Shown: piece after piece, positions 10,674-13,933 of the stretch | Layout of the letters: each line of letters opens with the position of its first letter | Position numbering within the stretch: position 1 is the first letter of the stretch | DNA from: an uncultured bacterium | GTDB lineage: Bacteria; Babelota; Babeliae; Babelales; Babelaceae | DNA length: 64,000 nt | NCBI GenBank assembly: GCA_963819815.1 | Contig: CAWFXL010000001.1 | Span: 864,001-928,000 of the forward strand | Direction of reading: 5' to 3' | Notes under the pieces: generated by a model | Told to the model about the DNA's origin: nothing | Databases searched by the model: none | Seen by the model: the letters and a program-made list of their open reading frames with translations, nothing else | Made by a program: the position numbers and the translations under genes

Positions 10674-12044
10674 ATGTCAACTTGGCTGAAACAATGGTGC
10701 ACACTGGGATTGGTGTTTTCAGTGATGACAACCTCTGTCACATCACTATCAACAGCTTCTATTGTACTTCCTCGTAGCCTTGAAAACGAGTCTTTTCTCG
10801 ATTCACCTATAACGAGAGACCTGCTTGATGAGGATATGGTTCTAGATGCTCTTTCTTATGGACCTAAAGCGATACAAGCGATTATTGAGGGCTTCCAGTC
10901 AGGATCTAAATTAGTAGGCAAGCATTGGTTAAAAACTGTGACGCTACTTCTTCTTGCACTTCAAAATCAAGGTAGCTTAATCACCATATCTGGAGCAACA
11001 GCATTATCCGTAACCAATAGCAATCAAGTTTTAACAGGCAATGGCTCAGCTGTGGCCCTTCTACCGATGAGCATTAGTGGGAATGCTATAGGAGATCGCG
11101 GTTCTAATAGCAATGCAACATTGGTGCTCAGAGATAAAAATTCCGGTAATATTAGCAGCAGCTGCGATGCGGGACAGACCCAAACATTTTCCAATGGTGT
11201 TTGGAATTCTTTCGGAATTACTGTTCTTGTTAACAACTTACTAGGATGTATTACCGTCACCCCAGCTCCCGGTTATCTTGACACTACTATGTATATCGAC
11301 TCTACCTTCATTGATTATATAGATTATTACCCAACGGAAAGCGTAGAGGGCACAATCGAGATTAATCCACCTATGACTAGCATTCCTAGTAACCCTATAC
11401 AAACTCCACCTTCAACGAAAATAGTTTCTTCAACAGTAACTTCTGAAAATTCTGGCGTATCTTTAACTACCCAAGCTGTATCACCAACAAATTCAGAGAA
11501 TAGCTCAAGTAATGCGAACGCCTCTCTAACAACTCAATCTCCATCTAATGTAAGTCATACCGTAGCAACATTACTTTCTAATTCCAATCAAAATACTACC
11601 AATGGCACCAATGATTCAAATAATGATACTATAGCGACCCCGAGTATAGTTCATGGGACAACAACTAGCACACATGGGTCAACAGACACTTCATCATTTC
11701 CTCTCATACTATCTACCAGCAAACCTCCATATGCTATTATTGGGGGTACAGTGGGTGGCGGACTGCTTTTATGTAGTCTTATAGCTGGGATTGCAGCATT
11801 CGTGCATGGCTGGTGCGGCATGCACAAGGAATCCTCCCCTGCCGAAGTGCATGACCATGAATTACAAACCCAACATTGTGTTCCAGATGAAGGTAGATCA
11901 AACTACGCTCTAATTGTAGTAGCTCAACCCCAAAAACCCATTAAATCTGATTACACGGGCCTGCCAGAAGCTTCGATCAGATCTCAATATGATCTGACTC
12001 CTCAGGCAAATCTTGGTTCGAAGGTTTGCCTGCAGCTGCAATGA
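10674..12044 (+). CDS. Single-pass membrane protein, receptor-like family paralog 1 (signal, small ectodomain, S/T stalk, TM, Tyr-motif tail)
   Basis: MSTWLKQW signal; internal GATALSVTN; S/T/N-rich stalk; TM PPYAIIGGTVGGGLLLCSLIAGIAAFV; tail SNYALI, SDYTGL, SQYDL. Confidence 0.8.
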   Translation: MSTWLKQWCTLGLVFSVMTTSVTSLSTASIVLPRSLENESFLDSPITRDLLDEDMVLDALSYGPKAIQAIIEGFQSGSKLVGKHWLKTVTLLLLALQNQGSLITISGATALSVTNSNQVLTGNGSAVALLPMSISGNAIGDRGSNSNATLVLRDKNSGNISSSCDAGQTQTFSNGVWNSFGITVLVNNLLGCITVTPAPGYLDTTMYIDSTFIDYIDYYPTESVEGTIEINPPMTSIPSNPIQTPPSTKIVSSTVTSENSGVSLTTQAVSPTNSENSSSNANASLTTQSPSNVSHTVATLLSNSNQNTTNGTNDSNNDTIATPSIVHGTTTSTHGSTDTSSFPLILSTSKPPYAIIGGTVGGGLLLCSLIAGIAAFVHGWCGMHKESSPAEVHDHELQTQHCVPDEGRSNYALIVVAQPQKPIKSDYTGLPEASIRSQYDLTPQANLGSKVCLQLQ

Positions 12045-12079
12045 GAGCCTGACCAACCCCTCACATAATACCTATCAGT

Positions 12080-12340
12080 ATGAACCTCTGATATTATAGG
12101 AAACCGCAGATGGATTTATTCTAGTTTGTGGCATTTATGCAGAGGTGGCATAAGCAAGAAATCATCCTTCTATTCAAGCGCATGATCATAAGTTCGGTAT
12201 CCTCCATGAGTATTCTAAGTGCGCCTTGGCCAGGCTTACAGTCCTCCCTATTCTGAGTACGAAGGGCTAGGGGTAGGGCAGAATTCCTTGCAATTCGCAA
12301 TGAGAAGGATGCTAGTCTTGCAGCTGTATTGAAAAACATT
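12080..12340 (+). pseudogene. Probable decayed 3' remnant of a further receptor-like paralog
   Basis: Short frames read VAFMQRWH (cf. VAFVRGW), QAHDHKF (cf. EVHDHEL), SEYEGL (cf. SDYTGL) and DASLAAVLKN (cf. YASLSLAPMKN) in the family order but in different frames. Confidence 0.45.
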
Positions 12341-12503
12341 TCGATCAAACGATAAATTCCTCAATAAATCGAGCTATTGAAGAATGCTGTTGGCGAAAAA
12401 CCCCAACCAGTGATAGAATTGCTCTTAAGGAAATGACAAGGGCTTGACAATTTCTGAAAAATAAATATTATAGAATATAGTTAGTAGAAAATTGAGGAAA
12501 AAA

Positions 12504-13933
12504 ATGACAAATTGGTTGAAAGAATGGTACGTGGTAGGGATGATGTTTATTGTGATGGCAACCTCTGTCACATCAACATCAGCAGCTTCTATTGAGCTTC
12601 CTCGCAACCTTGAAAGTGAGTCTTATCAGGCAAAGTCACAAGCTACTCCAAAAATTGTAGCTAAAAAGATGGCCTCGCAAAAAGCTTCAACCCGCAAAGT
12701 TGCACCAAAAAAAGTAAAAAACCCTAAACATCAACCTACAAGCAATGATTTGATGGAGGATACTATCTCTCCAGATACTCTTTCTTATGGAGCCAAAACT
12801 CTACAATCCCTTTTGGTACTCTACAAGTCTGGGTTAAAAATAGTGAAACCAGTATTAAAATTTGTGCGAAAGCACCCGGGAAAAGCGCTAACAATTGCTC
12901 TTGCATTGCAAAGTAAGGAATCCTCAAACAGAGCACCTGGTGCAACAGCGTTATCAGTAACAAATATTAATCAAAACATAACATCCAATAGTACAGTTGT
13001 GCCCCTTTTACCTATGACTATTAGTGGAACTGTTAATCCTACCACTGGTCTTCCAACCTGTAATGCAACAATAAGACTTGGTGATATAAATTCTGGTAAT
13101 ATTACCAGCGCTGGAACTGGACTTCCCCAAACATTTTTTGATGGGGTATGGGATTCTTATGGATATACACCTGTGTTAAGCACCATATTAGAAAGTATTT
13201 TAGTCACACGAGCTATTCGTTATCTTAATACGACAATTTATGCCTATCTTACTGTAATCGATTTAGGCGCTACGCCAAATACTATGGTACAAGGAATTAT
13301 CCAAATTAATCCATCCATATTAACATACCAAGCATCTCAGTAACGAATCAACCTTCATCGGCAATAAACACAGGAACAAGTATTTACTATATGCCAGATA
13401 CTGCACCCACTATTATCGACACCACTCCAGCAGCTCTAGCAATTCTCCAACAACCCAATCTTCATCAGTCGTCAGCAGCCCAGTACCAACCCCACTTCCA
13501 AATACCAATCAGAGCTTAACCGGCTCTGTAAATAGTACGGACGCTACCGCTATACCCACATCAAATACTCAAGGAACAACAACATCAAACATGTCCGATA
13601 CTTCATCAATCCCTTTTATAAGTCCCTACCAGCAAACCCCCCTATGCTATTATTGGGGGTGCAGTAGGTGGCGGATTGGCTTTATGTAGCATTATAGCTG
13701 GGGTTGTGGCATTTGTGCGTGGATGGTGCGGCATGCACAACCAGGCCTCATCAGCTGACGAGGAAGATCAAGAATCAGGTGTCCAACGTTCTTCAGATGA
13801 AGTTAGATCAGCTGACTATGCCCTAATTATAGTAGCTCCGTCTCAAAAACCCAAAGAATCTGGGTACCAAGACTTGCCAGAAGCTACAACAAAACCTCAG
13901 TTCTACGAATCGGTTAACCAACCTCTCGCATAA
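12504..13933 (+). pseudogene. Receptor-like family paralog 2, frameshifted (ORFs 12504-13343 and 13676-13933 are parts of one gene)
   Basis: N-part MTNWLKEW...GATALSVTN is homologous to paralogs 1 and 3; the S/T stalk continues in another frame after ~13320; the TM/tail (SKPPYAIIGGAVGGGLALCS, ADYALI, SGYQDL, FYESV) resumes after another shift at ~13620. Confidence 0.8.

Follow-up and report, generated by a model that had tools for sequence, protein, structure and literature searches.

How do proteins laid out like eukaryotic cell-surface receptors come to be encoded on a bacterial chromosome, and on which side of which membrane do their tyrosine-rich tails work? The question is raised by three paralogous genes, here called A, B and C, in a 64,000-nucleotide stretch of contig CAWFXL010000001.1 (positions 864,001 to 928,000; hereafter the window, whose own numbering is used below) from a metagenome-assembled genome (MAG) of Dependentiae (TM6), 1.64 Mb in 2 contigs with a completeness of 88%. 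The window is bacterial chromosome, with genes for MnmG, Lgt, DnaG and sigma-70 upstream of the family locus and for transketolase, Pgi and glucokinase downstream, and the family genes are placed among these housekeeping genes. Gene A (10674-12044, + strand, 456 aa) and gene C (23531-24838, − strand, 435 aa) are intact and share 38% identity (178/473, E 9e-65). Gene B has the same layout and is broken by several frame changes, and the count of three intact paralogs in the original prediction thus falls to two. That prediction had read the genes as eukaryote-style receptors with tails of the immunoreceptor tyrosine-based inhibitory motif (ITIM) type, inserted into host membranes. The observation behind it was confirmed, as both the layout and the tyrosine-motif tails are family-wide and non-random; its interpretation is partly supported.

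Tyrosine motifs of the tails

An exhaustive profile search of 1.84 billion proteins retrieved 72 proteins, and P0004 from a word-based search brought the number to 73. Sorted by profile domains, hydropathy and tail content, 28 of the 73 are type-I membrane proteins with the same module order and an identity to A of 21-49%. The 28 tails were cut after the transmembrane segment (TM), their ankyrin repeats were masked, and they were compared with shuffles. The tails are 24-250 aa long, carry conserved motifs or ankyrin repeats and hold 2-9 Tyr each; their composition (Tyr 4.4%, Phe 1.1%) differs from that of the rest of the proteins (Tyr 2.5%, Phe 3.9%).

The tail tyrosines are arranged in motifs far beyond what this composition gives. 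Of the 102 tail Tyr, 62 fit the pattern Yxx[LIVMF], below YxxPhi; shuffles averaged 18.1, and 0/2000 reached 62. At least one such motif is present in 27 of the 28 tails and at least two in 25. The strict ITIM pattern (S/I/V/L)xYxx(I/V/L) occurred 21 times in the 28 tails versus 4.2 in shuffles (0/2000), with at least one in 19 tails, and Yxx[LIV]P occurred 21 times versus 1.4, whereas NPxY was not enriched (1 observed, 0.6 expected). The commonest residues around a tail Tyr are Ser at −2, Asp, Ala or Glu at +1, Leu, Val or Ile at +3 and Pro at +4. The tail consensus is S-x-Y-[DEA]-x-[LIV]-P, which is broader than ITIM, and the ITIM interpretation, although its pattern is truly enriched, is one reading of this broader motif.

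Because kinship among proteins inflates such statistics, we repeated the test on one tail per BLAST cluster. In these 11 non-redundant tails with 31 Tyr, YxxPhi was counted 17 times against 6.2 in shuffles (0/5000), the ITIM pattern 6 times against 1.4 (17/5000) and Yxx[LIV]P 9 times against 0.5 (0/5000); when the same tails were reversed, the counts were 4, 3 and 1, respectively. Inspection by eye gave further recurring tail motifs, namely HYA[TN]S..QI..xY[ST][TN]L and a usually C-terminal Y[DE]x[VC]x[AQ]PL.

At the level of single sites the picture is more varied. Of the nine motifs first quoted for the window, SNYALI, SDYTGL, SGYQDL, SEYDDI and SGYASL fit the strict ITIM consensus, while ADYALI, ADYGLI, SQYDLT and QFYESV fall outside it; in B and C, Ala occupies position −2 of the best-conserved Tyr. 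The six closest tails all keep the first Tyr; the second is present in five of them (P0008 has Cys instead), the third in four and the fourth in two. Such gain and loss is the usual behaviour of short linear motifs. The tails had been described as diverged except around their tyrosines. In these six tails, whole blocks (GWCG.H, Y[AG]LI[VI]V[AT] and S.Y.D.P) are conserved beyond the Tyr residues, and the later Tyr are conserved less well.

Modules, their relatives and their decay

The modules that had been proposed for these proteins, a signal-like N-terminus, a beta-rich ectodomain, a Ser/Thr/Asn-rich stalk with N-x-S/T sequons and a Gly-rich TM, were all found in place. By hydropathy, A and C each start with a hydrophobic segment and have a single strong TM towards the C-terminus (352-383 in A, 329-360 in C). 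The signal-like N-terminus of gene A (aa 1-28, 10674..10757) consists of MSTWLKQW, a hydrophobic stretch (hydropathy window 13-32) and S-T-A-S, and its W-L-K-x-W start and A-x-S end are conserved across the family alignments; these N-termini were called from hydropathy and alignment. It is followed by a leader module (aa 29-107, 10758..10994) with the motif HP.KALT.FLALQN, defined by alignments and by AlphaFold2, which placed its two predicted helices at 62-81 and 85-98. The AlphaFold2 model was built on a 32-sequence alignment, a 4-sequence alignment having been discarded after it yielded a mean predicted local distance difference test (pLDDT) score of 33.

The ectodomain of gene A (aa 108-235, 10995..11378) is predicted to be a beta-sandwich, with a pLDDT per 10-residue block of 82-98. 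The predicted sandwich resembles cohesins, pilin/adhesin domains and macroglobulin domains (best Z 10.5, then 8-9), and in this model it is a generic adhesin-type fold. The stalk (aa 236-350, 11379..11723), recognised by its composition and sequons, is disordered in the model (pLDDT <50). The TM helix (aa 351-377, 11724..11804; PPYAIIGGTVGGGLLLCSLIAGIAAFV) is seen in hydropathy and as a helix at 353-377 in the model; in A and C it carries PPYAIIGG.V.GG and is Gly-rich and GxxxG-like. The juxtamembrane HGWCGMHKESS and the tail (aa 378-456, 11805..12044 including the stop codon), which holds SNYALIVVAQPQ, SDYTGLP and SQYDL, complete the protein, and the tail is modelled as disordered (pLDDT ~40). 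In gene C, on the − strand, the beta-sandwich lies at ~24110-24502, the TM at ~23774-23854 and the tail, with ADYGLIVVA, SEYDDI and SGYASL, at 23534-23773. With 79 aa in A and 80 aa in C, the tails have the length of 70-80 aa given before. A basic block, (K/R)RGWCG..KKSS, directly follows the TM in most family members; the juxtamembrane Cys that had been noted as common to the three paralogs is present in A and B ([HR]GWCGMH) but not in C, which has RTWYAR.

There are 11 N-x-S/T sequons in A and 9 in C, and Ser, Thr and Asn together make up ~31-32% in both. Across the family, ectodomain and stalk hold 208 sequons versus 145 in shuffles (0/2000), whereas the tails show no enrichment (18, with 22.4 expected). 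The excess is weaker in the giant bacterial homologs described below (222 versus 193; 5/300), and because these have an excess too, the enrichment does not show eukaryotic glycosylation.

Pfam gave 0 families for A and C at E up to 1. The origin of the ectodomain became clear from the remainder of the 73 proteins. Besides the 28 type-I members there are five fragments, one leader-only protein of 569 aa from the same genome, four proteins that match in stalk, TM and tail only, and 35 other proteins of 142-5594 aa, most of which consist of 2-13 tandem ectodomain units. The units in the giants are 100-120 aa long, with per-domain E values mostly from 1e-15 to 1e-22. Nine of ten giants scanned with Pfam carry Cadherin_4, Cadherin_5 or Big_9, and one is annotated as Magnetococcales; in the giant P0009 the best Cadherin_4 stretch (157-224) coincides in part with the units, which lie at 172-271 with a period of 120. 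Because it is homologous to repeats in giant cadherin-like bacterial proteins, the ectodomain can be assigned to bacterial adhesin-type units and, judged by this homology, is bacterial and not a eukaryotic receptor domain. The name of eukaryote-style receptor thus fits the type-I layout and the disordered tail, in which Tyr motifs are enriched beyond composition, but not the ectodomain.

The 569-aa protein lies at 54497-56206 of contig C1 (− strand). Its first ~133 residues, signal and leader, are 60% identical to gene A, while the remaining ~430-aa region is unrelated, matches nothing in Pfam or NCBIfam and contains no TM. The protein has an ortholog in the sister genome, that is, the one same-genus genome that also carries the family. 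Sharing of this kind suggests that the leader may be a portable module.

Within the phylum the family is rare. It was found in 2 of 261 Dependentiae species genomes, the source genome and its sister, and 24 members come from metagenomes. A count of 66/261 was rejected, as all matches outside these two genomes lay in ankyrin columns and an ankyrin-free alignment gave 2/261. The word-based protein search gave 2 foreign homologs, which the exhaustive profile search revealed to be a limit of its sensitivity. Among the sequencing runs listed, those with matching DNA were soil-metagenome runs, in small shares, and no RNA run was among them. The best score in a search of the ESM Atlas, 0.76 for rotifer MAM-domain proteins, was under the level counted as evidence. 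A scan of the genome for other type-I layouts returned 12 ORFs (open reading frames), none convincing, with a strict N-terminal filter that missed A and C themselves. No description of the family was found in the searchable literature. The best explanation of these data is a small, fast-evolving set of Sec-exported single-pass type-I membrane proteins of intracellular Dependentiae.

Gene B is a pseudogene. Its N part (12504..13343, + strand), comprising signal, a Lys-rich insert, leader and beta-sandwich, is closed by an in-frame stop; the stalk remnant (13344..13633) is a zone of lesions that three-frame translation can follow only across two other frames; and the TM (KPPYAIIGGAVGGGLALCS...), RGWCGMH and the tail with ADYALIIVA, SGYQDLP and FYESVNQPLA (13634..13933) are read in yet another. 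Compared with its intact ortholog in the sister genome (L018 6001-7536, 511 aa), gene B has indels of 1, 5, ~86, 6 and 2 bp, all in the stalk, and from the TM through the start of the tail its DNA is nearly identical to that of the ortholog in the sister genome (G027). The sister-genome ortholog at the position of gene A (P0008; L018 4348-5559, 403 aa) keeps signal, leader, stalk, TM and tail, and its beta-sandwich is replaced by TQETTPFAPTLYYP-type repeats. The tail has therefore been retained in a copy without the ectodomain, outlasting the sandwich.

Where the tails could work

One pointer to the workplace of the tails comes from ankyrin repeats, which follow the TM and the Tyr motifs in 8 of the 28 members and were absent from A, B and C by Pfam. 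Two genes upstream of gene A, a 610-aa protein (7123-8955, + strand) has a hydrophobic signal-like N-terminus, canonical ankyrin repeats and no second TM. Behind these repeats it carries two copies of a cassette made of Tyr motifs and a special ankyrin pair, 36-40% identical to the ankyrin tails of family members in other genomes (E 2e-19 to 2e-21), and it also holds YxxPhiP three times and NYENFSAPL. A hidden Markov model of the cassette, made from nine tail units, scored 125.7 bits on this protein and 66.2 on the next of the 68 ankyrin ORFs of the genome. A crude motif scan placed a hydrophobic segment at the start of 29 of the genome's 54 ankyrin-motif ORFs and an internal TM ahead of the ankyrin repeats in none of them. 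For Chromulinavorax, PMC6561590 reports signal peptides on 78% of 98 ankyrin proteins and the budding of outer-membrane vesicles at an early stage of infection. Given a cassette on a signal-bearing soluble protein, and signal-bearing ankyrin proteins both here and in Chromulinavorax, the Tyr-ankyrin cassette appears to be made for export. By default topology rules, a cassette behind a signal peptide and one behind a stop-transfer TM end up on opposite sides of the inner membrane; the host would be the simplest common workplace for the type-I tails and the soluble ankyrin protein.

On this basis we tentatively favour a host-directed motif mimicry in which the tail is a host-facing Tyr-motif scaffold, a reading that may well be right and is far from secure. 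The protein would work at the interface of bacterium and host, with the sandwich on the bacterial or lumenal side and the tail in the host cytosol, where it would mimic the tail of a host receptor. Most likely it would serve, by analogy with Tir- and EPIYA-type effectors, as a multi-site docking scaffold once phosphorylated by host tyrosine kinases; use as a YxxPhi adaptor-sorting signal would be less likely. Dependentiae are obligate protist parasites (PMC6561590, PMC4776705), and amoebae can have a full phosphotyrosine machinery, as 22 protein tyrosine kinases, 12 protein tyrosine phosphatases and 48 SH2 proteins are given for Acanthamoeba in PMC4053784. For delivery, the shared leader module or vesicles would be the only candidates that we can name. 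In its most specific form, whole Sec-exported type-I "receptors" would be moved by such an undescribed route to the host membrane and their tails read by the protist tyrosine-kinase/SH2 machinery. This form we consider unlikely; if true, phosphotyrosine signalling would be hijacked in a microbial eukaryote, and membrane effectors would be delivered in a novel manner.

Four proteins that match only the stalk-TM-tail part of the profile (E 1.6e-5 to 8.3e-4 in 1.84 billion proteins) bear on the idea of mimicry. Of these, a hemichordate protein has a CARD domain at its C-terminus, and an amphioxus discoidin-domain protein has a Tyr-rich tail. The metagenomic P0072 is a leucine-rich repeat (LRR) receptor whose TM starts with NYTLIGGAVGG and whose tail reads SNYALAVLPTSPDYDHG; P0074 has SSEYAGS, AYDQLP and SHYANS..FQI..TYASL in its tail, and a region search with this tail matched P0074 alone. 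The family of P0072 consists of metagenomic LRR type-I receptors, with a diatom and plants as distant named relatives. Its tails contain SNYA[LVP]I and DYD.G and close with YDAPxSTLKF, in the manner of the Dependentiae tails. This likeness, which might reflect mimicry or gene capture, is a lead and not a proof.

Several points weigh against the host-facing scaffold. Topology is set by a signal peptide, a stop-transfer segment and the positive-inside rule, and because these proteins have a signal peptide, a hydrophobic stop-transfer TM and then K/R, the tail lies by default on the cytoplasmic side of the bacterium. In hydrophobicity the family TMs equal or exceed the TM segments of other proteins of the genome (Kyte-Doolittle 2.29 versus 2.00 for 623 TM segments of 75 polytopic proteins; the Hessa scale was also used in this comparison), so that stop of transfer, anchoring in the inner membrane and a tail inside the bacterium would be expected. 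The same comparison ruled out a weakly hydrophobic Gly-rich TM slipping past the inner membrane. No match to FHIPEP as a type III secretion marker or to CagE_TrbE_VirB/VirB4 as a type IV marker was found in the 88%-complete genome, where control searches with FHIPEP and VirB4 gave matches in 4 and 1 of 14 genomes. The insertion into host membranes that had been put forward is so far a conjecture with a gap in its mechanism, with the default topology placing the tail in the bacterial cytoplasm and neither secretion marker being found. The weakest link is the exit of a protein with a true stop-transfer anchor from the bacterial inner membrane, and no known route carries such a protein to a host membrane. 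The lineage is soil-associated. A single tail Tyr is replaceable, by Cys in P0008 and by Thr in gene C; the best-conserved Tyr lies in a hydrophobic block, YALIVVA, where it could have a structural role; and the shuffle counts are not independent events because family members are kin. Pairwise similarity to the eukaryotic tails is weak (E 2e-5 and 0.036) and spans low-complexity and TM segments. Finally, gene B is decaying.

The main rival is the opposite placement, in which the protein belongs to the envelope with its tail on the bacterial side, the stalk carrying the sandwich across the periplasm and the Tyr tail or ankyrin repeats binding bacterial partners or regulating from inside. The signal-like N-terminus, the inner-membrane-like hydrophobicity of the TM and the K/R behind it favour this placement, as do the bacterial origin of the ectodomain and a diderm genome with two Omp85 genes and no type III or type IV secretion marker found. 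Against it, the genome gave no match to the SH2, PK_Tyr_Ser-Thr (Hanks-type kinase) or Y_phosphatase (classical tyrosine phosphatase) models. In 14 control genomes the kinase model matched in 9 and the phosphatase model in 8, but the SH2 negative is weak because that model matched in none. To our knowledge, there is no bacterial system that reads repeated S-x-Y-[DEA]-x-[LIV]-P motifs. In addition, the Tyr-ankyrin cassette stands behind a signal-like N-terminus in the soluble neighbour and would hence lie on the other side of the membrane, and the 29 of 54 ankyrin-motif ORFs with a signal-like start, none with an internal TM ahead of the repeats, speak in the same direction. We regard the bacterial-side tail as possible but doubtful.

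Two narrower host-side readings start from the motifs themselves. If the proteins were ITIM-type decoy receptors, they would recruit SH2-domain phosphatases to damp host signalling, and the enrichment of the strict pattern, its presence in 19 of 28 tails and the fit of 5 of 9 window motifs agree with this. The enriched motif is broader, however: having Ser at −2, Ala or an acidic residue at +1 and Pro at +4, it fits kinase-substrate, SH2 and adaptor motifs generally; in B and C the residue at −2 of the best-conserved Tyr is Ala; and ITIM signalling via tandem-SH2 phosphatases is described for animals, whereas the host here is probably a protist. The decoy reading, which is drawn from sequence patterns, therefore seems improbable to us. 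The YxxPhi motifs could alternatively be sorting signals for clathrin-adaptor mu subunits that steer the protein or its membrane through host trafficking independently of phosphorylation. Any eukaryotic host could be expected to recognise such signals, the required form is found at 62 of 102 tail Tyr, and the tails, disordered and on the cytosolic side of the TM, are placed as sorting signals are; yet a single signal would not need 2-9 Tyr in each tail, set between Ser at −2, an acidic +1 residue and Pro at +4, an arrangement that resembles multi-site docking scaffolds, and the delivery problem is the same as for the phosphorylated scaffold. This makes sorting rather improbable. That the genes are recently acquired, without current function and in decay is suggested by the broken gene B, the loss of the ectodomain from the sister-genome copy of A and the presence of the family in 2/261 species genomes. 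But 28 members at 21-49% identity keep module order and motifs, A and C are open at full length, and the TM and tail DNA of B is nearly identical between two species, so that decay as a general explanation is very improbable.

Secretins are represented by four genes and a fragment, and Omp85 by two genes, which fits a diderm with type II or type IV-pilus-like systems; such systems in a diderm envelope are reported for the phylum in PMC4776705. Three of the secretin-domain genes (open frames of ~800-940 aa) lie within 8 kb at 1178086-1185459 of contig C1 (− strand), and the fourth, at 22164-22663 of the same contig (− strand), is apparently split by a TGA codon. The number is unusually high for a 1.6 Mb genome. 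We also considered the GG-rich TM as a substrate of a bacterial rhomboid or rhombosortase and rejected this, as no rhomboid-family match was found in the 88%-complete genome with a search that matched 14/14 control genomes.

The neighbourhood and known systems

Several neighbours of the family genes are themselves of note. Directly upstream of gene A, an AAA+ ATPase gene (9272-10549, + strand) occupies the same place in the sister genome (L018 2959-4242). Its ATPase part aligns to positions 155-398 of FtsH, without the protease domain, and its N-terminal 190 aa are Gly-rich and hydrophobic. A membrane AAA protein beside type-I proteins could be an extractase or translocase, although a shared gene order in two close species is no proof of this. 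Between genes B and C lie three tandem paralogs of 591-595 aa (14248-16023, 16128-17915 and 18185-19972, all on the + strand) with signal-like N-termini and a Cys-rich C-terminal region, of which two copies are found at the same place in the sister genome; their matches to right-handed beta-helix proteins are weak (E 0.0024, under the cut-off). An 82-aa ORF (21466-21714, − strand), whose N-terminal half is hydrophobic and whose end is rich in Cys, Ser and Lys (CGKKCSSSTCTRDCDCGQSSKSCRSGSCK), sits between a multicopper oxidase and an SPFH/NfeD pair. Adjoining gene C, a 271-aa protein (25208-26023, + strand) has weak matches to alpha/beta-hydrolases (PGAP1-like, DUF900).

The family can be set beside several known systems. 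EPIYA-type effectors, which include Tir of attaching-and-effacing E. coli, CagA, Tarp, the Bartonella Beps and Anaplasma AnkA, have motifs of the Y-[DEA]-x-[ILV] type; Tir is inserted in the membrane with its Tyr motifs in the cytosol, and AnkA has both ankyrin repeats and Tyr motifs. EPIYA motifs are phosphorylated by the host and read by host SH2 proteins, and the effectors are delivered by type III or type IV secretion, as described in PMC3593179. Our family shares with Tir and the EPIYA effectors a disordered region with repeated Tyr motifs; similarity in sequence to them was not seen, although no search aimed at it was made. It differs in its Sec-type signal, type-I TM, adhesin-type ectodomain and mucin-like stalk, and in a genome with no FHIPEP or VirB4 match. 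With eukaryotic type-I receptors that carry ITIM, ITAM (immunoreceptor tyrosine-based activation motif) or YxxPhi motifs, it has in common the order of signal, beta-sandwich, S/T stalk, Gly-rich TM, basic or Cys-containing juxtamembrane region and Tyr tail; unlike theirs, its ectodomain is not of the Ig superfamily or a lectin but a bacterial repeat unit, and its genes lie on a bacterial chromosome. The ectodomain is homologous to the 100-120 aa units of giant cadherin-like/Big_9 adhesins, but family members have one unit (rarely 2-3) instead of up to 13 and add signal and leader, stalk, TM and Tyr tail.

Chlamydial Inc proteins, whose tails are thought to be exposed to the host cytosol, are likewise membrane proteins of an intracellular bacterium. 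They have a bilobed hydrophobic hairpin and use type III secretion, in contrast to the single C-terminal TM and signal-like N-terminus of our family, which has no bilobed hydrophobic domain and no type III marker in its genome. The Sib proteins of Dictyostelium are amoebal type-I adhesion receptors with bacterial-type repeats, a TM and a Tyr-motif tail, and also have a VWA domain and NPxY motifs. The Ig_SibA Pfam model matches one giant homolog weakly (E 0.0017), and NPxY, as noted, is not enriched in the family tails. LPXTG, PEP-CTERM and GlyGly-CTERM sorting signals differ as well: in these, no more than a few basic residues come after a TM helix at the extreme C-terminus, and the family TM is followed by tails of 24-250 aa.

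Dependentiae are widespread, almost uncultured protist parasites whose effectors are essentially uncharacterised, and the family offers concrete, testable candidates for communication between these bacteria and their hosts. It would be a variation on a known theme, the mimicry of host short linear motifs by intracellular bacteria. Should the tails act in the host, the mimicry of tyrosine motifs, familiar from a small number of animal pathogens, would extend to parasites of protists, and membrane proteins would be delivered by a route independent of type III and type IV secretion. Should they remain in the bacterium, the repetition of YxxPhiP motifs would indicate a bacterial recognition system not yet known.

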